From NCBI GenBank assembly GCA_002269645.1, contig NIVC01000753.1, positions 366,979 to 430,978 on the forward strand: a DNA stretch of 64,000 nucleotides, read 5' to 3'. Shown one piece after another: positions 40,835-64,000 of this stretch (its first letter is position 1; each line of letters begins with the position of its first letter). This DNA comes from Macrostomum lignano. Lineage: Eukaryota. The translations under genes were made by a program, and so were the position numbers. The notes beneath the pieces are model-generated. The model had not been told where the DNA came from and searched no databases. It saw nothing but the letters and a program-made list of their open reading frames with translations.

Positions 40835-41299
40835 ATGTCAGACACTCCACCGCCCAGCTACCAGTCGGCTGCGAAGGAGAAGCAAGCCGGCAGCCAGTCG
40901 TCTGGAAACCAACAGTCGACAACTGGAAATGCGACAGTTGAAAACCAGTCGCATTACGGGTACCCACAGCAAGCTGGCTACCAGCAAGCTGGCTACCAAC
41001 AAGCTGCCTATCAGCCTGTTCAACCCGTTGCAGTTCCAGTTGCAGTCCCGGCCATGGGCATGGGCACAGCGAACTTGGGAGAGGCGGCAACCCGCATGAC
41101 CTGCCAGTTCTGCGGGGCCGACATCATGACTAATACCCAGTACGTCATCGGCGTGACGGTCTGGATAATAGCGGCCGTGCTGTTTATCACCTGTCTTTGG
41201 CTCTGCATTTTCATTCCATTCGTCACTAACGCCTGCAAGGATGTCAAGCACTCGTGTCCGAACTGCAACAACCAGATAGGAGTGTACAAGCGCTGCTGA
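40835..41299 (+). CDS. LITAF-domain protein 2 (154 aa from ATG 40835), intronless CDS
   Basis: PPPSY; RMTCQFC...CKDVKHSCPNC. Confidence 0.93.
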   Translation: MSDTPPPSYQSAAKEKQAGSQSSGNQQSTTGNATVENQSHYGYPQQAGYQQAGYQQAAYQPVQPVAVPVAVPAMGMGTANLGEAATRMTCQFCGADIMTNTQYVIGVTVWIIAAVLFITCLWLCIFIPFVTNACKDVKHSCPNCNNQIGVYKRC

Positions 41300-43852: not shown

Positions 43853-44431
43853 ATGAGCGGAACCGTGCACCCGGTTGGTGTCAGCAAGACGGACGGCGCC
43901 AATCCGTCTGCAGCTCAGCCTGGGTACCCGCCAAGCTACCCGACTGCCTCCACAGCTCAGCCTGGATACCCGCCAAGCTACCCGACTGCCTCCACAGCTC
44001 AGCCTGGATACCCGCCAAGCTACCCGACTGCCTCCACAGCTCAGCCTGGGTACCCGACTAGCTACCCTGCTCAGCAGCAGCATCAGCAACCGCCGCCGCC
44101 GCCTGCCTACCCAGCCGCTGGCGGCTACCAAGGCCAGCCCGCTCAGCATCATTTGGTAGTGATGCAGCAGCAGCCAGTGGTTGTGAACGCCACAATTCCG
44201 CGATTCAACCAGTCGCCGGTGTGGATGGTCTGCCCAAACTGTCACAACAATGTGCAGACCACTGTCTATTATAAGATCGGCGGCTACACCTGGCTGATTG
44301 CCGCTATTCTGTTCTTCGTCGGCCTGTCGCTCGGCTGCTGTCTGATCCCGTTCTGCGTGAACTCGTGCAAAGACGTTGAGCACATCTGTCCGAGCTGCAA
44401 CCGAATGGTTGGCCGATTCCACCGTCTGTAA
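43853..44431 (+). CDS. LITAF-domain protein 3 (192 aa from ATG 43853), intronless CDS
   Basis: PGYPPSY repeats; PVWMVCPNC...CKDVEHICPSC. Confidence 0.93.
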   Translation: MSGTVHPVGVSKTDGANPSAAQPGYPPSYPTASTAQPGYPPSYPTASTAQPGYPPSYPTASTAQPGYPTSYPAQQQHQQPPPPPAYPAAGGYQGQPAQHHLVVMQQQPVVVNATIPRFNQSPVWMVCPNCHNNVQTTVYYKIGGYTWLIAAILFFVGLSLGCCLIPFCVNSCKDVEHICPSCNRMVGRFHRL

Positions 44432-49292: not shown

Positions 49293-49412
49293 AGTAGTAT
49301 ACGTTTTTTTGACACAAAGCCGATTTCCTTATGGCGAAATACATAGTAAGTACAGGCCCAAAAAAATGGCAGAGTCTGAAATTTGCCGTGCACGCAAACT
49401 AGCTTTTACGCA
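49293..49412 (+). repeat. Left terminal inverted repeat
   Basis: 49304-49384 is the reverse complement of 63919-64000 with one substitution and one homopolymer length difference; weaker similarity continues to ~49412. Confidence 0.95.
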
Positions 49413-49630: not shown

Positions 49631-50194
49631 TTACAAATATTGAGGCAGCACTCGTAAAACAAAATTGCGTAATTTAGCATACAAGTATCGAAACGAACCA
49701 GTGCGAATTATATTCCGTTTAAAAACGCTTCGAATAAAACACTCTAGGTTTCCTCTGGTAGTCAACTTATGAAAAATATAAAAAATTACCCAAAATCCAC
49801 AACTTCCACTCTGTGGGTCTTGGATAGCAAAGCGACTATAACACCAATTTTTCGAATTTCCACATTCTTTTCCTAGCCATTTTGCTATTCTTGGCAATGG
49901 TACTAGACCAAGAGAATCAAAATATTCACCAAGTCGTTTGCTACCGCGACCTGCTCGATGACCATAAACCCAAACGCATACCCAATGTTTTCCGGGCAGG
50001 TTGGAGACGTCAGTATTAACGATAAAAAAATAGTCTTTACCGTCTAAAGGTAAGCGTCTAAGTCCACCAACAAAGTTTTGAGGAAAAACACCAAGAAATA
50101 CAACATTTAAAAAATGTGCGCACAATTTCGATACAACATTGCGAAGGAAGCGATCTGTTACACCACGATCTAGGATAGAATCAATTACTTCCAT
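49631..50194 (-). CDS. Adenain-like cysteine maturation protease (187 aa)
   Basis: FLGVFP, IVNTD...GKHWV, EYFDSLG, IQ...SGSCG: His/Asp/Cys triad intact. Confidence 0.92.
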   Translation of the reverse strand: MEVIDSILDRGVTDRFLRNVVSKLCAHFLNVVFLGVFPQNFVGGLRRLPLDGKDYFFIVNTDVSNLPGKHWVCVWVYGHRAGRGSKRLGEYFDSLGLVPLPRIAKWLGKECGNSKNWCYSRFAIQDPQSGSCGFWVIFYIFHKLTTRGNLECFIRSVFKRNIIRTGSFRYLYAKLRNFVLRVLPQYL

Positions 50195-51506
50195 ACTGTG
50201 CCAGGAACAATGTCGCGAAGTTCAGTCAGTTGCAGTTGCTTGTCAAATATACCTCCAAATATGACGTTGTACACGGTACTAGTTGCAGCATTGAAGCGTA
50301 ACTCTAGTTTTACATTTCCTTCCTTATACAGTTGCACTCCCCGTCCGACACCAGGTTCACTTCCAAGACTGAATGCAAAAATTGAGTAACCATTGGCGTA
50401 ATCCAGCATATTAAATCCAATATCTCGTCCCTGTAGATAGATTCCAAGCTGTTGTAGCAAAAAATTATACTCTGTCACACAATCATCTCCAAAGTTTGTC
50501 TGCAGCGGACGCGATGGTACCGAGTCTCCATTCACAAACACACCAATGCTGCTCACATTTGCATGCTCAAAGTTGAACGGATTTGTGTCCATGCTTCCAT
50601 TGAATGCCTTGTTGCTTACGATTGCCATCAATAAAAGCCGTGGTACCCCACTAGGAAACAAATTTTCATGCGTATGGCTAGACGATCCTCGGGTATAGTA
50701 AACGTACCAAGGCTTAGACTTCGGTGCGGATATAATGCATTGTGACTTTTAAGTCCATGAGCATGTGCACTGATAACACTCGGCGAGGGTTGAACAAACC
50801 GCAATCGTAGTTCTGCACGCAAAAACTTGATCTCATAGTCTTTTAAAACCGCACCAGCTTCTAATGTTGACCCGCTCAGGACAAATTTACTTTTTGCCGG
50901 TATGAGCTTGATCCGTAGTGGTGTCTTTGATAGTAGATACCGAGGCTGACGAAACAAATCCAAGAATAACGGCCCCGATACAGTGCACCGCCTATTGTTA
51001 GCAATGAGCGCCTGCCTCTTTGTTCGTCCATCGTTTTCACTTGTTGCATTCATTTTACCAGCTGTATCCTTGTAAAACCCCCACGGCAGTAAACCAGCCT
51101 TCTGAGCTGTATGTCCATATTCCAGTAATGTAAGAAGCATAGCCTTGTATGGATACATAAAACTACCACCTTCAACTACAGTATCGCCAATAGTAAATTG
51201 AACGTCCTCAAACAATGTTCCAATAACCAAATTATTCAAACAAACAAAATTTTTCGTTGCATCTATAGGTTCACCTTCACTATCACTAACGCTGAAGCAT
51301 ACCGTGAGCACAGTTTCTTGTAGATCCAAATACAAATCGCCTGCAGGCACAACTTCAAATTCGATAGGTGATCCTTTTGTAATACCATGTTGCGGTTGAA
51401 TGTTAGTATATCGATTATCCAAAACACTAAACTGAACAGGACTTTGATCAAATAGCGACAATTCACTTTTAAGAGCAGCAATATCAGGTCCAAGCAAATG
51501 GTTCAT
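50185..51506 (-). CDS. Major capsid protein (double jelly-roll, Polinton type), ~440 aa if a 1-nt frameshift near 50691 is corrected
   Basis: KSELSLF...SPIEFEV...YLDL..T.L...NNL..TLFEDV...YPYKA.L..LL.YG in ORF 51506-50628; continues as NLFPSGVPRL...NPFNFEH...P..PL...GYSIFAFSL...GNVKLELRF in ORF 50661-50185. Confidence 0.9.
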
Positions 51507-52007: not shown

Positions 52008-53168
52008 TTACTTATACACTTTAGAAAATAGTTTAGCAGTCTTTGCGTCAAGATCATTTTCGTTTAACCACTGACTTCTTGAGATTGGCATACCTTTCCA
52101 TTTTACTAGATACAGACGACTTCCATTTTTCGCTCGATCAGTTTCAATAACTTTTTCAATTTCATTAGGTGTTTCATCTGTCTCGTTTACCAACATTAGT
52201 TCCGCTTGGTTAAACCTTCCTTTCAGCACTTCAAATCCATCTTCAGGGTCCACTAATTCGTACATTGGCGGGTCTGTCAAGTGTACACGATGAATGCGAT
52301 ATTTTGAATTACTCCAAGTCGTAGTGTATCCTTTTTCAAATGTTCCTCGACGTCGTGTAATTCTAACCCAATCACCAACTTTAAATTTATTCTCATTCTT
52401 TTTAGTGTACGACTTCGCAAACATTTTGTCCCACAAAATTCCTTGTAAATGCGGGTCTGTCTCTACCCGTTTTGGTGTTTCTCCACTCAAGGATCGATGA
52501 GGACTAGAGTTGAAATTATCTTCCAATTGCGGTAAAATGTCAAACCATCGAGGTAAATTTTTTGCTCGAAAGTATCGTAATAGACGTTCCTTTAACGAGC
52601 GGATAAATCGTTCAGCCATGCTTGCCTTGTAATTGCTTTGGCTAACAAAAAATCGAACTCCTTCCTGTTTCAGCATTTGACGTGTAGCTCTTCCGAGAAA
52701 CTCCATACCAGCATCACCTTGTAAATAAACAGGCTTAAAACCACTTCGAAAAATCTCTAGTAATACTTGACTAACTTCTGAAGGCTTCTTTGTACGCAAT
52801 GGTCTTAGTCGTACAACTCTAGTAAAACAGTCGATAAGAACAAGTATGTAACGATAACCTCGATTTTCCGTCTTGTATTGAGGTAAATCTGCCAAATCGA
52901 TTTGAAACTGAAACTTTGCAACTGGTGGCACACTAATTTTTGGAGTTGGAAAGTTTCGTCGTGTTTTTCGAAATAAATGATGCTCATTTGTTGATCGCAC
53001 CCAATTATCAACTTCGCGCTTTGCAACTTTGTTCGTAATCTGTGGAAACTTTTTACGTACTTCACGAACAAGTATAGTCTTGTTACCACTAAATGAAGTA
53101 GGCCTGTTCAAGTTAAAAAAAGCATCCGTCAAAAATTCTTCAATTTCCTTACGCACTCGCTTCATCAT
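52008..53168 (-). CDS. Retroviral-type (rve) DDE integrase with C-terminal chromodomain (386 aa), intact
   Basis: FQIDLADL, YILVLIDCFTR, LQGDAGMEF, ASMAERFIRSLK; C-terminal IEKVI...YLVKWKG......W. Confidence 0.95.
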   Translation of the reverse strand: MMKRVRKEIEEFLTDAFFNLNRPTSFSGNKTILVREVRKKFPQITNKVAKREVDNWVRSTNEHHLFRKTRRNFPTPKISVPPVAKFQFQIDLADLPQYKTENRGYRYILVLIDCFTRVVRLRPLRTKKPSEVSQVLLEIFRSGFKPVYLQGDAGMEFLGRATRQMLKQEGVRFFVSQSNYKASMAERFIRSLKERLLRYFRAKNLPRWFDILPQLEDNFNSSPHRSLSGETPKRVETDPHLQGILWDKMFAKSYTKKNENKFKVGDWVRITRRRGTFEKGYTTTWSNSKYRIHRVHLTDPPMYELVDPEDGFEVLKGRFNQAELMLVNETDETPNEIEKVIETDRAKNGSRLYLVKWKGMPISRSQWLNENDLDAKTAKLFSKVYK

Positions 53169-54149: not shown

Positions 54150-54578
54150 CTACTTTCGTTGAATTGATCGTATTAAATTCGCTGCTCCCGCGGCGGTACC
54201 AACTACTCCAGACGTTATCCCAAGCGCAGTGCTTATAGCAGGTAGAGCGGCAATAATTGGAGCCAAAAAAGGTAAAAATCCTCCGTGTTGGACAAGTATT
54301 TTCCTTTTTGCAGTAATTGGAGTCTTCTGTTCCAAAAGCTGGCGTATATATCTGCGATGCTTCTCAAGTCGTCTTTTGTTACAGTTACTAATTTTAATAC
54401 GTCCACTAATAATATTAAACAGAAAGTCTACTAGACATCGTATCTCCGACTCTGAAAGTGTTTGTAAAAAACTTTTTCTCTGCTTTGGATGCTTTAGCCG
54501 ATAAACAATTTGTAGTAAAAAAGCACACTGACACAATGAGCGAGCATTTTGTTTTCCTTTTTCTGTTAGTTCGCTCAT
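54150..54578 (-). CDS. Small basic Polinton core-type protein with QHGGFLP motif (142 aa)
   Basis: Basic helical N-terminus, KILVQHGGFLPFLAPII, hydrophobic C-terminal segment. Confidence 0.75.
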   Translation of the reverse strand: MSELTEKGKQNARSLCQCAFLLQIVYRLKHPKQRKSFLQTLSESEIRCLVDFLFNIISGRIKISNCNKRRLEKHRRYIRQLLEQKTPITAKRKILVQHGGFLPFLAPIIAALPAISTALGITSGVVGTAAGAANLIRSIQRK

Positions 54579-54634: not shown

Positions 54635-55624
54635 TTAGTCCGACCTATGTTTAAAATGCAGTACGACAACAACGTGTGCTCCCGGATCAAAATTAAACGG
54701 TTTTCCGCGCTGGTCCGATAGTCGAATCGAAATCTCGTGAATTTGTTGTCGATTTGTTTTCAAGTAGTAGGGTGTTTGCAATGCACTGCTATCGCGTATA
54801 AGTTCTCCGTTTTTCTTTTGTTGGAGTTCCACAACTCGAAGCAACGGTACTGATGTACTTCCCACTGCTTGATACTCGATTATATCTGTGTAACAGTACA
54901 TGTAAACCGTTTTACTAGGCATCGGAGAAGGTAGCACAGCATCCAAGTAGGTTTTGTTAATGCGCCAAACACGATTTCTCAACCAATATTGGTGTACTTT
55001 GATGTACACTTCTCCTTCCGTTTTTCGAAGATAGTCTCCATGCGAAACAAGTCGTATAGCTTCACCAGGCGATAGAACACAATAAAAAACATAATAGTTC
55101 TCAGGTACTAGCGCTAGAGTATTGTCGAGACTTTTTATCAAATCCAAGTATGAACCATCCGGTGGTTGTACACTACCAGCGGCAGGTTTTGATAATTTTT
55201 CCGAGACAAGTCCAGAAAGTTTCTTCCAAGAGTCAAATTTGAAAGCGTCCATAAATGTAACTGGTAGTTCTAATCCAATAGTTTTTTCGCCTGAATTTCG
55301 TAAAAGCCAGGCAAATTTTTCATCTGTACCAGACGGTTGCCAGGAAACGTAAGCATCCAAGTCTGCCTCTGCCCAAACACGACCCCAATAGTTTTTCTTT
55401 AATCGTATTATTGAGTCAATGTCCGCAAAATATGGAACTTCAAATCGACGCTCACGATGAGCATTTGGCGTCGTAATTGCTCCATGGCACAGTAATTCAA
55501 CTAGTGCAACCTCGAAGAATCCGTTCAATAAATTTATTGGTTCAGTTAGTCGCACTCGAAATTCATTAGGCGAGTTGGTTTCGTAACTGATATCGTTTGA
55601 CGGCAAAAAAACGTAAAAACTCAT
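54635..55624 (-). CDS. Minor capsid protein / penton (329 aa from ATG 55624)
   Basis: MSFYVFLPSN...N....F.V.L..PI.L...FEVALVEL; YCYTDII....VG....PLLRVV; I..I.I.L.D..G....F. Confidence 0.88.
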   Translation of the reverse strand: MSFYVFLPSNDISYETNSPNEFRVRLTEPINLLNGFFEVALVELLCHGAITTPNAHRERRFEVPYFADIDSIIRLKKNYWGRVWAEADLDAYVSWQPSGTDEKFAWLLRNSGEKTIGLELPVTFMDAFKFDSWKKLSGLVSEKLSKPAAGSVQPPDGSYLDLIKSLDNTLALVPENYYVFYCVLSPGEAIRLVSHGDYLRKTEGEVYIKVHQYWLRNRVWRINKTYLDAVLPSPMPSKTVYMYCYTDIIEYQAVGSTSVPLLRVVELQQKKNGELIRDSSALQTPYYLKTNRQQIHEISIRLSDQRGKPFNFDPGAHVVVVLHFKHRSD

Positions 55625-55681: not shown

Positions 55682-56371
55682 TTACACAAACTTTGCATCA
55701 CATTCACGAGTATAGACAACTTGTTCATCACCAGAAAATATTCCTGTTCTCAATCGTAAAAAATCTGGTGTCACTTGCCGCAGGTCAATGAATAAATATG
55801 AAAAAGGTTTGTTATTTGTTGCGTCTTCATACACATTCACTAGAAACCTACTATTACGCGGATACATTTGTCGACCGAGATGTTCAACTGTGGTTCGATC
55901 GCGCACACTACGAGTTAGACAAATATAACTAGCTGATAAACTTCGCATGCGTGCTTCTGGATCAGACTTGTTAAAAAGACCTTGACAAAGGTACAGACAA
56001 GTCAAAGGGATATGATGCGCATGCTTTGTAAACATACTAGTAAATTCTGGCAACTTAGCAATCTCGCTTTGCAAGTCGTCAACAACAACCAAATCGTGTG
56101 GTAAAAAACGATTAATCATCTGTGGTGTGAATTCGGGTACAAAAACAATAGGGTCAAGACCGCTTTTTTGCCAGCATGTTCTAATTCGTTGTTGATCGTC
56201 TGGTTTCAAACTTGATCCATGGCACCAAACAAGACGGCACGGTTTTTTATCAAATAATTCTTTTCGTTCAGTCAACAAACGCAACGTCCATTCAGTTTTA
56301 CCCGAGTTTGAAGGTCCAGCAATAATAAATGTAGAATCGTGAGCTAGTTGCATATTGTATGGCTGCTGCAT
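55682..56371 (-). CDS. A32/FtsK-like genome packaging ATPase (~229 aa)
   Basis: Walker A IAGPSNSGKT, Walker B VVVDD, HH, SLSASYI, PFSYLFIDL...LRTGIF. Confidence 0.93.
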   Translation of the reverse strand: MQQPYNMQLAHDSTFIIAGPSNSGKTEWTLRLLTERKELFDKKPCRLVWCHGSSLKPDDQQRIRTCWQKSGLDPIVFVPEFTPQMINRFLPHDLVVVDDLQSEIAKLPEFTSMFTKHAHHIPLTCLYLCQGLFNKSDPEARMRSLSASYICLTRSVRDRTTVEHLGRQMYPRNSRFLVNVYEDATNNKPFSYLFIDLRQVTPDFLRLRTGIFSGDEQVVYTRECDAKFV

Positions 56372-56373
56372 TT

Positions 56374-56817
56374 TCAAGCACCAAAGCGTTGCTTAACTTG
56401 CATAACCTTGGTAACCAACTTCGCAGCTAGTTTTTCTTTCCAACCAGTAGACGGATCGTGGGCAATCTCTCGTGCACCAGATTCTAATAGCTTATCAGCT
56501 TTTAACCTCTCTTGCACGTCAGAATTTTTATCATAGGCCACGTCGTGAAGCATGCACAAATTGTCAAGCCGATTAATTCCTCGTTGTCCTTTTGCTAGCC
56601 TAGCTTGCAGTTGCGTACCTGGACCACAAAACTGATATCCGCCGGGTAAATGTGCTTCAAATGGTAAATGATTAATTAACCAATTTACGACACCATAACC
56701 TTGTTGCTTTTTATTAATCTTTCTAATAGATTTCTTCTTTTTACGAATGCTCTTCTTTTTCTTTTTAAAACCTCGATCTTTCGCTGGAGACATTTTTACA
56801 ACATATATTTTAGGCAT
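56374..56817 (-). CDS. Parvovirus-VP1u-like phospholipase A2 domain protein with basic N-terminus (147 aa)
   Basis: HLPGGYQFCGPGT (Ca-binding-loop-like), NRLDNLCMLHDVAY (catalytic HD), ADKLL. Confidence 0.88.
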   Translation of the reverse strand: MPKIYVVKMSPAKDRGFKKKKKSIRKKKKSIRKINKKQQGYGVVNWLINHLPFEAHLPGGYQFCGPGTQLQARLAKGQRGINRLDNLCMLHDVAYDKNSDVQERLKADKLLESGAREIAHDPSTGWKEKLAAKLVTKVMQVKQRFGA

Positions 56818-56908: not shown

Positions 56909-57391
56909 TTATTGGCCAGTGCTGCCAAAGCCGCCAAAGCCGCGCCGCTTGGTCGGCGGCTCAATCATCCGAATCGAATTGTCTGCTTCAGTCACATAGA
57001 CTGAAGCAAGCACGGCCTGCTCCAGAACCAGTTGTGCAATACTGAGCCCGGCATAGTACTCAAAGTCTTCCGGACTGTAATTAAACAAGACTATACAGAT
57101 TTCACCAGTATAGTCGGGGTCGATTACGCCACCGCCAACAAATAAGCTGTGCAGAGCCATGCTGGAACGTCCCGCTATCCTGCCATAGGTACCAGGCGGT
57201 AAGCGAATTTTGAGTCCGGTTCGCACACTCCGGGACTCGTAGGCCGGAATGGTACCATCGACGCCAGCGCAAAGATCATACCCGATCGACCCGACAGTTT
57301 TTCGGGTCGGAATCGTTGCCGAATCGTATAGACGTTCAACTAAAAGCTTACGATCAGTTAGTTGTTGTTGCTGCTGCTGCTCGGGATTCAT
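56909..57391 (-). CDS. dut: Trimeric dUTPase (160 aa from ATG 57391)
   Basis: All five motifs recognisable: SIGYDL, GRIAGRSS, GGVIDPDYTGEI, IAQLV, RGFGGFGSTG. Confidence 0.95.
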   Translation of the reverse strand: MNPEQQQQQQLTDRKLLVERLYDSATIPTRKTVGSIGYDLCAGVDGTIPAYESRSVRTGLKIRLPPGTYGRIAGRSSMALHSLFVGGGVIDPDYTGEICIVLFNYSPEDFEYYAGLSIAQLVLEQAVLASVYVTEADNSIRMIEPPTKRRGFGGFGSTGQ

Positions 57392-57683
57392 GTCGATTCT
57401 TGTAGCTGAAAGTTTAAAAAAAAGTTTTTTTTCTTGAAACATGAACGATAGCACTACATTTACGTCTACTACAAACACAAGCTTAGTCTTGAGAATCTAA
57501 CTATAAAAAATATACTTTTTCAAATAATTAAACACAAAAAAGTGCTAAAATTATAATTTAAACGAATGCCGGTATCATTTATTTATTGTAAATAATGATC
57601 AATGAAAAAATTAATGATGGGTTACAGTCTTCTATAGCATGCTATTACTTTGTACAACAAAAGAGATCAGAGCATATTGTTAA

Positions 57684-58014
57684 TTAATTAGCCAAGTGCC
57701 AGTGTCCAAAGGGTAGCGAATTAATTGAACTTGTCCAGGATCGCTTCGTATCGAAGAAGCTTAGTGCAAGTTTTCTTTGTTGCATCAAAAAAAACTTTCT
57801 GTTTTCGAGAACGAATGGACTGTATGCGCGAAAACACAAGTTGTCGCTTGTGTAAGACTCTTAAATAGTCTTGATGCTTTAAACTGCTCTGTGCGGCTTT
57901 AGAAGCAGTACTGCTCCAGCTTTGCGACCGATTGAGACTGGAACTTTAAACGATTGCTGCTTAACCAGACCGGACCGGACTGGACCGGACCGGACTGGAC
58001 CGGACTCCCCGCGC

Positions 58015-58046
<32 letters not shown>

Positions 58047-58760
58047 ACCACCACCACCGCCGCCACCACCACCACTGCCGCCGCCCGCCCCCACACCACC
58101 GTGGGACGTATTTGTTGACAGTGTGCTTGCATGGCTTTTGCGATAAACGCAGAGCATCAAGTCTAGCTGCTCGATTGCTCTATATTGCCAATTACTACCT
58201 CGAGATTGAAAATTGTCAATTTTTATTAACAACTGATTAATAACGCGTGCGAACCAGTCATTGTAGGCCTCGGGAGATAACAGCATGTCACTGTTTGTAA
58301 TCGTCTCATCAAATGATATTGTCGCAATGTTGGTATTAAAATAGACCGAAATGATCTCTTCGCTGCTCGAGCCATCGTTGTCGTCTGCTGCTGTTTTCGG
58401 TCGAAATAGTGTCACTTTCAAGTGAAAGCAGACTCTTATTAATAAACTGGGTGAGCCAATTTTTTCCAATATTTTAAATATTGGTTCTCTTAAAGACGCA
58501 ATCAACTCGCCAGGAAGTAACTCGCCAGAGCTGTTGCCTTGTTGTTCAAGAGTGGGAGTAAATTCGACAAAATTTACCCGACCACGATGAGCTGACTCGC
58601 GCAAAGCGATGGACCACCCATCTGGTGGGTTTTCGATCAGGTTTTGCAGCGATCCGGTCAGTAATCGTTGCGGTGAAAAACAAGCACCATGCGAGTGAGC
58701 ATGCAGCTCGGCTTGATTACTGAACTTTTTTCTGCAGATTTGGCATTGTGCACGCGGCAT
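57684..58760 (-). pseudogene. Internally deleted protein-primed DNA polymerase B: C2H2 finger + N-terminal segment fused out of frame to the last ~70 codons
   Basis: CQICRKKF....ELHAH; IDNFQSRGSNWQYRAIEQLDL (GSGW-type motif). After a junction near 57900-57915, other frames read SKAAQSSLKHQDYLRVL...IQSIRS and KLALSFFDTKR....NSLPFGHW*, the typical Polinton pPolB C-terminus. No exonuclease or polymerase motifs A-C are present. Confidence 0.82.
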
Positions 58761-58983
58761 TGTGTGCACCTAGCTCGACAACGAGCGTATCGAGCATAAT
58801 ATTAATAGATGATCCGGTTTGTCATTTGCGGCTGTAAGAAAAATGATGATTTGGTTAGTTATAGGTATAGCTGACACGTTTACTATTAGAGAAAACAATT
58901 GGTAAATAAATAAAAAAAGACAAAATGTTTGTAAAAGAATGCATCGCAACTGCGATTTGACAGCAATTGTTTACTTGTTAAGT

Positions 58984-59541
58984 TTAGTTATTAACAGAGA
59001 TTAAAAAATCCTTGACATGGTTAAGAATATTATTCAATTCATGAGTGTTTTGAACGCCCATAATAACAAACTTTTTCGAAAAAAATATGTTACAAAAAAG
59101 CCTTGGTTTTGATGCTGATCTAACAGAAACTGCTTGTGGGAAATTTTCTGCATCGTATCCAACCAGATAATTCGAATAGTAGCCTGCATATCTTTTTAGA
59201 CTAGAGAAACCGAATTTTGGCCAAAGATGACCAATAAAGCCGACATAGGTACTGCTCTGAATTTTTACTGAATCAAAATCTACACAATTAATAGTGTCGT
59301 TGATAAATCGTAAAACTGAGACTATCTGAGAATTTGATTTACAGCCATATATAGTTAGTTTTCCTGCTGGATAAAGTTGGATTTTAGCATTTGAATAAAT
59401 TGTCTTTAGCATTGTTGGTCGGCTTAGGAATAGTTTGCAAAACCGGTTTCTGGTCTGTAGCTTCTGTTTGGTCTGCTTTAAATCAAATTTTTCAAACGGG
59501 TGCAGCTTCAGACTCGCAGTAACTATTAATAGGACAAGTCG
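58984..59541 (-). CDS. TATA-binding protein (TBP)-like protein; 185-codon open frame after a splice acceptor, first in-frame ATG at 59412
   Basis: Manual alignment to the TBP core: IVTASL..FDLK; AKIQLYPAGKLTIYGCKS (cf. TALIFSSGKMVCTGAKS); DSVKIQS (cf. DFKIQN); YDAENFP...KPRLFCNIFFSKKFVIMG (cf. YEPELFP...KPRIVLLIFVSGKVVLTG). Confidence 0.82.
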   Translation of the reverse strand, partial: RLVLLIVTASLKLHPFEKFDLKQTKQKLQTRNRFCKLFLSRPTMLKTIYSNAKIQLYPAGKLTIYGCKSNSQIVSVLRFINDTINCVDFDSVKIQSSTYVGFIGHLWPKFGFSSLKRYAGYYSNYLVGYDAENFPQAVSVRSASKPRLFCNIFFSKKFVIMGVQNTHELNNILNHVKDFLISVNN

Positions 59542-59751
59542 CTAAAACGGAAAATAAATAATAAGAAAAGTTAAACATGACTATACTATCGTAAATTCTA
59601 ATATTAAATTACAAAACCTGGTTAGCGTACAAGGAGTAGCAAAAAATGTTTTGAGCTTTTCCCTAAAAAATAATATTTCCCTAGCCAAAAATTTGATAAA
59701 TATAGTGGAATAAGTTAGTTAAAACTTGGATAAAATTAGTCAAAAATTTTG

Positions 59752-60950
59752 TTACTCATCATCAGAGCTGCTGTACGAGTCGTCCGATGAAGACACGCTA
59801 GCTGTAGTAGCGTCCGCAGCAGCACGCTTTAAAAATGCTGTCTCCTTGGACGCTACCCTGGTTCCAGAGGCAGGTGTACTCACCAAGATCTTTGCTGGTG
59901 GAGCCTCCACCCAGTCTGTGCCATCTGCACCAGCTTCGGCAGAATTGTTTTGCTGTTTTGCACCGCTGCGTTTTCGAACTTGCTTTTTAGGCGGCGGTTC
60001 AATAGAGGCTGGCGCTGCATTCGATGTAGTCGACTTCTTCGATACGGTGGTGGTAGACCGACGCTTTGCAGGTGACTTGGCAGGTGTCACCTGGCTTGAA
60101 TTCTGCAGGCTTTGTTCATTTGCTTCTTCTTGCTCACAGGTAGATGTTGGGGACGGACTCCTGCTTCTAATTGCTGACTTGGTCGCGGGTAGGTGTGCAA
60201 GCACTCCCTTGAACATGTCGAGGCGCTGCAACATGTTGTCGGAAGATTCTATGAGTGTCAGAGAGCGCACAGCGAATGTAATGCGCCAGACGAGGCAGCC
60301 TTTTGGACAATACAAGCTCGTTGCTTGCACTGTCATTTGGTAGGTACCGCTGACACCTTTGAAATCGGAAATGGACACCTCCTTCCCGTGTGGATGATCG
60401 TTGCTGATCCTGATTGTGGCACAAGGGTAAGCAGGCTTTATAGCCAGCCATTGTTGAGGCACAAACTCGAGGACGTCGTTAGCATGCTGATGAGCTGGTT
60501 TTGTTAGTCGTGCCAAGGGTCGAGCATCTTGAATCTCGTTCAACTTGACCGATAGACCTTTTTCGACTTGACTGCAAAACATTATATAAATTATGAATAT
60601 AGTTTCCTAAAATTAATTGTATAAATTTAATATGGTGCTCACCGGAGAGAGTGGAAGAGTTCCTTATCGCAGCTGTCTGGATGAAATTGGACACTTACTG
60701 CGTCGCGAGAGTCGTGTCTGCAAGACGGATGATCGAGCTCTGGCCTTTCTGCGATTCCACGAAAAAGCTCCATTGGAGCCTTGGTTTGCAATATAATTGG
60801 GTACCATTTTGTACACTCGATTGATGGTTTCCACGCAATAGATCGAAACTGGCAGGACGAACCAGTCGTGGTTGTAGACTGCTCTCCAACGTAAAAAATC
60901 GGACTCGAGTCGGAGCGTACAATTGACTCCGTCTTGATGCAAGCTGCCAT
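59752..60950 (-). CDS. Spliced gene, join(60950-60643, 60571-59752), 375 aa; probable T7 gp2.5/NCLDV-type OB-fold ssDNA-binding protein with disordered acidic tail
   Basis: 71-nt AT-rich intron CG/GTGAGC...TTTTGCAG/T joins two ORFs in frame (308+820 nt = 376 codons). Motifs YPIILQT..M..FRGI and GTYQMTVQATSLY....WRITFAVRSLTLIE, plus the tail SSSDDSYSSSDDE. The SSB call is inference. Confidence 0.72.
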
Positions 60951-61639: not shown

Positions 61640-62345
61640 CACAAATGCTGTTTGGACTAAGCTAAATTACTGTGTTGAGACAGTTAAGCTGGACCACGGC
61701 TAAATCACTATTGATACGGTTAATTGCTACTAGACCCATGGCTAAATCACTGTACGTTGAGACGGTTAAGCTGGACCACGACTAAATCGCTGTACGTTGA
61801 GACGGTGGTTAAGCTGGACCATGGTTATAAAACTGGACGGGTGGTTAAGCTGGACGACTACAGCTAAAATTACTGTTGAGTCAGTTATGCTAGACCACAG
61901 CAGCCAAATCACAGTTGAGGTAAAGCTGACCATAGCTAATTCTCACTGTTGAGACGGGTGCTGCTGCTTGGCTCACAGCTAAATAACTGGACAGTTAAGC
62001 TAATCGGACTACAGCTAAATCCCTGTTGAGACAGTTGCCTGGACCACAGCTAAAATCACTGTTGAGGCAGTTAAGTCTGGACAACAGCTAAAATTACTGT
62101 TGAGACAGTTAAGCCTTGACTATAGCTAAATCATCGTTGAGGTAGTTAAGCCTGGACTATAGCTAAATCACTGTTGATGCAGTTTTAAGCTAGACCACAG
62201 CTAAATCATACTGCTGAGGCAAAAAAGCCGGACCACGGCTAAAAACTGTTGAGGCAAAAGCTGGACCACAGCTAAATCATACTGTTGAGGCAAAAGCTGG
62301 ACCACAGCTAAATCATACTGTTGAGGCAAAAGCCAGACCATGGCT
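61640..62345. repeat. Degenerate ~35-40-nt tandem repeats inside the Polinton (CTGGACCACAGCTAAATCACTGTTGAGACAGTTAAG-like)
   Basis: About 18 imperfect copies visible. Confidence 0.85.
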
Positions 62346-63839
62346 AAAGAAACGTATGAAAAAAAATTATTTGCATGGATTAATAATTTTTGTTTAATGA
62401 TGACTGTACAAGATATTGACTTTATATTGAATTAAATAATTTCAATAAATGGCGAATAAAATTGAAAGAATTTTTTAGAATAATGAATTTATAGAGATTA
62501 TATTATTGATTACAGACTTGTTTGATATATACTAAAAGAGCAATTACTTGGACACATTGCTGGCAAAATTTTATGAAGAGTTAGAAAAAATGTCTTTTAA
62601 GATAGTCCCAATATTCAAATACTTGAGTTGTATTACAGGTCTTTGGCTAATTCTACTTGGTAGAAGCCTGTGCTCATTTGAGAGACTTTTACAGACTTGA
62701 TGTCCTTCTGTACAATAATTGCGCGAGTTTAGCAGCGCGTTGAACTTGGGTAGAAATAGCAATTGATGATGATGGTTTTCAGTTGCTGTCGTTGGTTTGG
62801 TACTTGTAGGCTACTGCAAGTTTGCTTTGTTGGGTCATTGTAGCTGGTTGTGATGGTGGTGGTGGTGCATACTGCAGTTGGTCAGTTGTCGTGGGTTCGA
62901 TTGCTGCCTAATTGATGAATAACATCAGTTCTTGTGTAAATGCGATCTAGCTCAGTTGTCTGTCTCTCGACATGAATCGAGGTTACTCTGGCGAGAGATG
63001 TAAATATGATGCTCTTGCAGCAGAATTGGATGTGGTGGTGTCGTGGCAAATGCGTTTGCACTGATCTGGAGGTGGCCGCGTGAAGAAACCATTCTTGAAT
63101 GCTATAATAATGGATAAGATGAGGGAAATTTGGTATAGGTGCATGTATACAATGTATATAGAAACTGAACTAAAGAGAATCAGTCTAAACAGAAACCGAA
63201 CTAAGCAGACAATCAATCTAGAAATTCTGACTAGCAGAGTATTAGTCTAAACAGAACCGAACTAGCAGAAATCAATCTAGAGACTGAACAACAGAGGATC
63301 GGTCTAAACAGAAACCGAACTAACAATCAATCTAGAAACTAAACTATAGCGAACAGTCAATCTAAAAAGAAAAACTGAACTAGAGTAGGTGATTATCTTA
63401 CCTTGTTTAACATAGCGCTCGGCCAATTCTGCTGACGTGATCGCTTCATTTCACTTAAGATGTAAGTATAGTTGAACAAGTAGTATAATGTAAACTTGGT
63501 TTAAGTTATTTAATATTTTCTGTGTCAGGTGTTCGTATATATATATATAGTATAAAGAAGAAGCATGTTGACGCAGTTGTTGACATAGTATCTGTAAACC
63601 ATCTGCTCAAGTTGGTGCAAAAATTCTATAGGCACTCAAGAATAGATCATTTACTATCTTTCTTCAAAAGGGTGATAATATTCACAAGTTTTCAATATTT
63701 CAAAAACACTTGAAATGTGTGAATAGCTTTGGAGTAAATTTGTCTTGAATGGAATCCTTTGAAGTGTGTTTGTGTCACCATTGCTAGAATCGGTTACTTG
63801 TATTTTGGACAGGTGGGATATGCAATTCGTCTGAATAAT

Positions 63840-64000
63840 CACGTTGCGTAAAAGATATTTAGCGTGCACTTGGAATTTCAGACTGCGTGCACATGGAATT
63901 TCAGACTGCGTGCACATGAAATTTCGGACTCTGCCATTTTTTTGGGCCTGTACTTACTATGTATTTCGCCATAAGGAAATCGGCTTTGTGTCAAAAAAAA
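63840..64000 (-). repeat. Right terminal inverted repeat (runs off the window), with extra tandem copies of a ~24-nt GTGCACGCAGTCTGAAATT unit
   Basis: Reverse complement of 49304-49412. Confidence 0.95.

Follow-up and report, generated by a model that had tools for sequence, protein, structure and literature searches.

A spliced gp2.5-type SSB gene and a probable second splice in the replication module of Macrostomum lignano Polintons

The window, a stretch of 64,000 nucleotides from contig NIVC01000753.1 of Macrostomum lignano, carries near its right end a gene for an SSB. This gene sits in a 14.7-kb element between inverted repeats at 49304-49396 and 63907-63999 (93-nt arms), and every gene of the element lies on the minus strand (Table 1). 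A first-pass annotation had called the element a Polinton, and this identity is borne out by the TIRs, the integrase and a protein-primed polB, which is recognised at the level of the family (PF03175, E 4e-20, in another copy). At the point where the polB of the window stops, other copies carry polymerase sequence and an endonuclease VII domain. At one of the six sister-locus pairs tested, a sister family has a TIR of 192 nt with AGTAGT at its ends, along with a target duplication of 6 bp; at the other five, no TIR pair was found within the stretches examined. The packaging ATPase, minor capsid and major capsid labels in Table 1 are presumptive. An intron in the major capsid gene was considered and rejected, as the split between its ORFs is a frameshift.

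The polB is cut at the same place in the window (57879-58760) and in both other near-identical copies examined (L044-L047); the most abundant subfamily may therefore spread with no polymerase of its own. Degenerate tandem repeats occupy 61650-62350, upstream of the SSB gene and within the element. To the left of the element lie two single-ORF host genes (40835-41299 and 43853-44431, plus strand), which we take to be LITAF-like.

Table 1. Features of the Polinton and of its SSB gene, with positions in the window.
Feature	Position	Strand	Remarks
Right TIR	63907..63999	.	cut by contig end
SSB exon 1	60643..60950	-	102 codons + 2 nt; N-terminal half of OB-fold domain
Intron 1	60572..60642	-	71 nt, GTGAGC..TTTTGCAG, phase 2
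SSB exon 2	59752..60571	-	remaining OB domain (to ~residue 215), basic disordered linker, Ser/acidic end
Donor 2, alternative, GTGAGT	59878..59883	-	after codon 332, K-x-L|V-S motif, phase 0; putative, from conservation
Putative alternative intron 2, 342 nt	59542..59883	-	would run from donor 2 to TBP-like acceptor; overlaps last 43 SSB codons
TBP-like frame, 185 codons	58984..59541	-	starts at phase-0 acceptor; first Met at codon 44
polB N-terminal part (C2H2-like start)	57879..58760	-	polymerase domains missing in window copy
dUTPase	56909..57442	-	PF00692, E 1.5e-29
Parvovirus-type phospholipase A2-like virion protein	56374..56817	-	PF08398, E 3.4e-9
Packaging ATPase (presumed)	55682..56371	-	Walker A visible, weak Pfam matches
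Probable minor capsid protein	54635..55624	-	no Pfam match
Adenovirus protein X-like core protein	54150..54578	-	PF05829, E 2.3e-6
Retroviral-like integrase with chromodomain	52008..53168	-	PF00665 (E 4.5e-8), PF00385
Probable major capsid gene	50185..51506	-	two ORFs in window copy
Adenain-like protease	49631..50194	-	PF00770, weak, E 0.038
Left TIR	49293..49396	.	begins AGTAGT

The SSB gene appears in a program-made list as two ORFs of 103 and 276 aa. The first-pass annotation had proposed that these ORFs (60639-60950 and 59752-60582) join in frame through a 71-nt GT-AG intron, and family conservation and spliced contigs both show this intron to be real. On the minus strand, the gene runs from the ATG at 60950 through the donor GTGAGC at 60642 and the acceptor TTTTGCAG ending at 60572 to the stop at 59752. 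The intron splits codon 103 in phase 2, and an unspliced reading meets a stop. Its GC content is 21%, against 49% in the flanking exons, and it has the features of a U2-type intron, namely a GTRAG-like donor, a pyrimidine tract and a YAG acceptor. The in-frame joining alone is weak support, because 11 GT..AG pairs around the intron also preserve an open frame. A GT at 60698, which would be a perfect phase-0 donor within exon 1, was rejected, as other families are without it.

A search of the genome with the SSB gene gave 47 matches (30 full-length, 96-100% identity). The donor and acceptor of intron 1 are intact in all 30 full-length copies, in 28 of which both exons are open. Within the window's family, intron 1 measures 71, 81 or 90 nt according to the subfamily; between subfamilies it takes up 21 and 10 gap columns, with zero in exon 1 and in the first 120 nt of exon 2. 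Genome searches that used three diverged public relatives as queries split at the same site. Intron 1 occurs at the identical codon and phase in seven diverged SSB families of the genome, whose aligned proteins or pieces are 25-36% identical to the window's protein. In the other six families the intron is 78-101 nt long. Its sequences are unalignable between families (global identity 42-58%), and GT..YAG ends are found in 10 of the 10 variants listed. No intronless copy of the gene was seen among the loci examined. The seventh family is counted for intron 1 only, because its exon 1 is broken, K-x-L-V-S finds no match in it and the stretches examined do not show the gene order of a Polinton. 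Among further loci, L031, L034 and L036 lack the donor and the adjoining end of exon 1, no usable exon pair exists at L102, L112 and L113, and exon 2 stands alone at L078-L080 and L099.

Evidence for splicing comes from contigs of four runs (X1, X5, X6 and X15), whose RNA status was guessed, none being on record as RNA. A joint between 60571 and 60643 that skips exactly 71 nt, with CT..AC ends, is present in contigs of X5 and X6, which represent two studies and two of the three presumed-RNA runs; the short side of this joint is 29-30 letters, just below the 31-letter bridging rule. The joint is absent from the contigs of X1 and X15. Junction-spanning sequence from presumed RNA and conservation of the intron in other copies, both suggested as checks by the first-pass annotation, have come out in favour of the intron, and we regard it as virtually certain that intron 1 is a real spliceosomal intron that is removed. 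As to the related expectation, that annotation by ORFs alone would fragment genes of this kind, public models already join the exons and only misname the product. The public M. lignano protein model P0001 (375 aa) is the product of the joined exons, and public gene models with joined exons carry the wrong names VASt, OTU, YDG and DUF3668.

The spliced product had been proposed to be an SSB of the gp2.5/NCLDV type, and an AlphaFold2 model examined by Foldseek and VIA-align agrees, displaying a gp2.5-type OB fold. The model of the public 375-aa protein was built on a 15-row alignment and has a mean pLDDT of 55 and a pTM of 0.48, with pLDDT of at least 70 for 128 of the 375 residues. A mostly confident domain extends to about residue 215, the OB fold covering residues 1-211, and the rest is modelled as disordered. 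The position of intron 1 corresponds to a helix (residues 96-115) with strands on either side; the OB domain requires both exons. In a Foldseek search of the PDB, the ten best rows consist entirely of gp2.5-type SSBs and similarly folded phage proteins, ASFV CP312R ranking first (E 4.3e-5), with T7 gp2.5 and the Enc34 SSB next. VIA-align gives CP312R a Z of 12.5 (rmsd 4.0, 184 aligned residues), the Enc34 SSB 7.0 and T7 gp2.5 6.7 (rmsd 5.4, 157 aligned residues), followed in its list by DUF2815 (6.5) and the herpesvirus proteins BALF2 (5.3) and ICP8 (4.6), with others at 3.9 or below; RPA, at 3.0 or below, is far from the gp2.5-type matches. The number of BFVD matches at the level of E 0.001 is 113, and among the top 50 all 47 that bear an organism name are nucleocytoviricot proteins. 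The Atlas independently leads to neighbouring clusters of Nucleocytoviricota, in which 10-17% of the members carry DUF5871, DUF2738 and Pox_I3.

At the level of sequence, no match to any SSB was obtained by Pfam, by PDB profile or by hhalign against T7 gp2.5, and no relatives outside M. lignano were found by sequence among homologous proteins, the representative library, viral contigs or phages. A metagenome search with the TBP-like alignment likewise returned no relatives outside M. lignano. The representative-library matches P0006, P0007, P0010 and P0011 were dropped for consisting of many short stretches; P0011, the sole one inspected, is a tandem repeat. The acidic tail noticed earlier is present in a reduced form: some acidic residues do stand at the end of the protein, but it is far less acidic than gp2.5. 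The last 15 residues hold 5 D/E and 8 S/T (relatives have 2-6 D/E), compared with 15 D/E in the last 21 residues of T7 gp2.5, and residues 226-375 are net basic, with 16 D/E against 20 K/R. On the strength of the model, we are very confident in predicting a gp2.5-type OB fold, and it is highly likely that the protein would bind ssDNA. The SSB was probably acquired from a giant virus (nucleocytoviricot).

The place of the gene within the element is also conserved. The order SSB, TBP-like, polB and dUTPase, followed by the virion module, is shared by five Polinton families, and a sixth family keeps the order SSB, TBP-like, polB. Since the order is conserved in five families and partly in the sixth, the SSB is a core gene and not cargo. 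Within this order the families vary. At L108:5872-7251 (minus strand), the TBP-like frame continues into what we take to be a deoxynucleoside kinase-like domain, 460 codons in all, and in two other families it is extended at the C-terminus by 120-140 residues. The L103-L104 family shares the SSB and TBP-like genes, and its polB is 28-35% identical to the reference, versus 53-76% elsewhere; this suggests a polymerase swap. An acceptor-like site also appears to lie shortly before the likely ATG of the dUTPase in several families, as judged by translations (window ~57400; L105, L108, L111). Past the end of one element there is another, more distant capsid-protease pair (L097:8479-9443), which probably belongs to a neighbouring Polinton. 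L038, L039 and L041 are rearranged: the SSB-polB block is inverted beside the capsid-protease end, and SSB exon 2 carries a deletion. At L031:8900-9238 (minus strand) and L032, an ORF that is presumably RPA-like and fragments that are presumably Helitron-like lie by a degraded copy and are probably unrelated to the Polinton SSB. The genome (G000) holds many other polB lineages, with 119 matches to PF03175; no SSB relative was detected beside them in the short flanks at loci L050-L061.

The more surprising part of this system is the probable second splice, which lies just outside the interval that the first-pass annotation described. All six families spell the motif K-x-L|V-S of SSB exon 2 as GTRAGY, in phase 0, and GTRAG occurs in none of the ten other Val-Ser pairs of the same exons. 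Codon usage gives an expectation of 0.18 per site for this form, and the third position of Val alone gives 0.025; 0.18^6 overstates the odds, because the families share ancestry. Two other conserved motifs have Ser columns that alternate between AGY and TCN among families. Both donor 2 and the TBP-like acceptor are kept in 30 of 30 near-identical copies, and the distance between them ranges from 271 to 619 nt across the six families.

On the acceptor side, the TBP-like ORF as listed, from 59412, is incomplete: conserved coding sequence extends upstream of it by another 43 codons, as far as a pyrimidine tract and the AG at 59542. In six of six families the frame opens in phase 0 at a YAG acceptor, with Arg as its first codon. 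Five invariant residues precede Met 44, and in two families the first Met comes at codon 21. The profile of the frame matches 35 TBP sequences of the PDB, most over positions 16-176, and the similarity, which begins no later than profile position 16, starts ahead of Met 44. PF00352 is found in two stretches of the frame, which would thus hold a predicted two-repeat TBP core (~180 aa).

Beyond donor 2, all six families keep the reading frame open over 42-50 codons, and contigs of X6 cover the sequence past donor 2, which argues that the read-through form of the SSB is also kept. No joint at donor 2 is present in contigs of the four runs, nor do they have a loose end at the TBP-like acceptor, and one X5 contig is unspliced from 58093 to 59973. 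The X6 cover of the TBP region is low and, together with the missing further joints, was counted for no model. No public model of an SSB-TBP fusion occurs among the cluster members listed, and exact look-ups of nine TBP-like or polB frames gave no public model; the homolog searches were length-limited (476, 462 and 324), so that a protein of ~517 aa could not be returned. The earlier inference that this family uses host splicing is supported; it overlooked a further conserved donor and a TBP-like frame that has no ATG, which widen the dependence on host splicing beyond one intron. Conservation makes donor 2 a strong candidate for a splice site in actual use, and an SSB-TBP fusion mRNA is likely to be made. 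The simplest reading is probably that alternative splicing yields either the SSB alone or an SSB-TBP fusion.

These features can be arranged into a mechanism of four steps. The host spliceosome removes intron 1 and builds the OB domain, as seen in the contigs with the caveats given above. The SSB, whose fold is predicted, would then coat the strand displaced in protein-primed replication by the polB of the element; the available text of PMC4889955 describes such strand displacement by protein-primed polB and viruses that often coat the strand with their own SSB. The SSB, TBP-like and polB frames would form one spliced unit. When donor 2 is read through, the 375-aa SSB with its Ser/acidic end would result, and when donor 2 is used, the last 43 SSB residues would be swapped in frame for the 185-aa TBP-like domain (332 + 185, ~517 aa). 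In families where the polB frame starts at a phase-0 acceptor, donor 2 might also be joined to polB. In the window's family, the strong acceptor in front of polB does not match donor 2 in phase, a point against this reading. More speculatively, the fusion might tie the TBP-like factor to replicating templates, or it might be a polyprotein cut by the protease of the element. Overall, a spliced SSB of giant-virus type at the head of an alternatively spliced SSB/TBP-like/polB unit is the best explanation and, in our judgement, a likely one.

Its most serious competitor is spliced-leader trans-splicing, by which the TBP-like frame, and polB as well, would gain a start codon in an operon-like manner; donor 2 would have another role or be little used, with intron 1 and the SSB unchanged. 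The M. lignano leader ends in ATG, with 30% of genes trans-spliced and 15% in operons, according to the available part of PMC8629364, and flatworm leaders all end in ATG, usable as a start, in that of PMC12582326. A leader ending in AUG joins a phase-0 acceptor in frame, and the element, with its genes all on one strand, could therefore act as an operon. The polB frame fits too: in four of six families it opens at a phase-0 TTCCAG and has no Met ahead of its zinc finger. What trans-splicing leaves unexplained is the conservation of donor 2 at the DNA level and its phase; moreover, it dominates where an acceptor has no upstream cis donor (PMC8629364, available part), whereas here a donor lies 271-619 nt upstream. 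We consider it unlikely as the main route, and the two kinds of splicing can coexist.

The same polB acceptors, placed in phase 0 just before the zinc finger in four of six families, with a weaker in-phase TAG in the window's family, would allow donor 2 to be spliced mainly to polB, giving an SSB-polB polyprotein with the TBP-like exon skipped. This is improbable: polB has its own ATG at its start in the window's family and in one of three copies of another family, the TBP-like acceptor is the nearest strong one, and no such joint is present in the contigs of the four runs. A gain of the intron after integration, or an origin of the gene as host cargo, has precedents in the intron-bearing cargo of a nematode Maverick (10.1101/2022.07.12.499685, available part) and in dinoflagellate introners (PMC11957031, available part), and sequence homologs were found in M. 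lignano only, but this is very improbable and largely refuted by the shared codon and phase in seven families at 25-36% protein identity with introns 42-58% identical, by the fixed place of the SSB in the replication module, and by virus-type fold scores far above those of RPA (Z at most 3.0).

With the alternatively spliced unit as the preferred reading, the system can be compared with known ones. The gp2.5-like SSBs of Nucleocytoviricota and phages (ASFV CP312R, PDB 8hw5/7yeq; T7 gp2.5; Enc34 SSB) share the predicted OB fold, the long disordered C-terminal part and, to a modest degree, the acidic end. The M. lignano protein differs from them in being ~10% identical, in its weakly acidic tail and, in the window copy, in the absence of the terminal Phe; its gene lies in a protein-primed integrating element, is split by an intron and has a probable fusion isoform. 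The SSBs of adenovirus (DBP), PRD1 (P12/P19) and Bam35/phi29 have the same expected role next to a protein-primed polB. These are reported either to bear no relation to typical OB-fold SSBs (PMC4889955) or to have only a highly divergent OB-like fold (PMC8276246), in the available parts of both sources. Unlike them, the M. lignano SSB, as modelled, would match the gp2.5 class. In the adenovirus E2 region, a DNA-binding protein and the polymerase are contained in one spliced unit, and the downstream frames need a splice for their start. The SSB fold of E2 is unrelated, and in M. lignano the donor lies inside the coding tail of the SSB and the partner is TBP-like. We lean slightly towards the view that a clade of animal Polintons has an alternatively spliced replication module, separately derived and adenovirus-E2-like, in which the SSB-TBP fusion would couple viral transcription to replicating templates.

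With animal Polintons/Mavericks (adintoviruses), the element shares AGTAGT TIRs, genes for an integrase and a PLA2-like protein, presumptive ATPase and capsid genes, a weakly matched protease gene, the 6-bp target duplication (in one sister family) and a polB with an endonuclease VII domain (in another copy). Intact vertebrate Mavericks are reported to be without introns in the available text of PMC8097293, which cites Kapitonov and Jurka 2006, and the corresponding part of the Widen preprint on a nematode Maverick (10.1101/2022.07.12.499685) gives core genes as intronless and cargo as intron-bearing. In the available parts of other sources, introners are described in dinoflagellate elements (PMC11957031), group I introns in Polinton-like viruses (PMC12220804), and a figure on non-animal MELD viruses marks some genes as TBP-like (PMC8502044). 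No mention of an SSB was found in the available portions of the Polinton literature that were term-searched, and nothing relevant was found in those of 10.1101/2024.03.25.586562, PMC11071308, 10.64898/2026.10.13.758929, 10.64898/2026.06.19.733378, 10.1101/2023.08.22.554363 and 10.1101/2023.10.06.561300. Within this scope no report was found of a Polinton core gene that encodes a gp2.5-type SSB or holds a conserved spliceosomal intron, or of Macrostomum Polintons; supplementary annotation tables, subscription journals and Repbase may already contain such a gene.

The present findings counter two working generalisations in print: that Polinton core genes lack introns, and that SSBs of the gp2.5 class are not used by protein-primed viruses. 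As the host is a laboratory model and the predicted junctions are exact, the splice claims are directly testable in existing RNA data. The findings also suggest that Polinton SSBs and ATG-less genes elsewhere may escape annotation based on ORFs. That a Polinton has an SSB of the NCLDV type is relevant to the exchange of genes between giant viruses and Polintons, and the keeping of the intron across such diverged families implies that these elements have long been transcribed by the host nuclear machinery while spreading.
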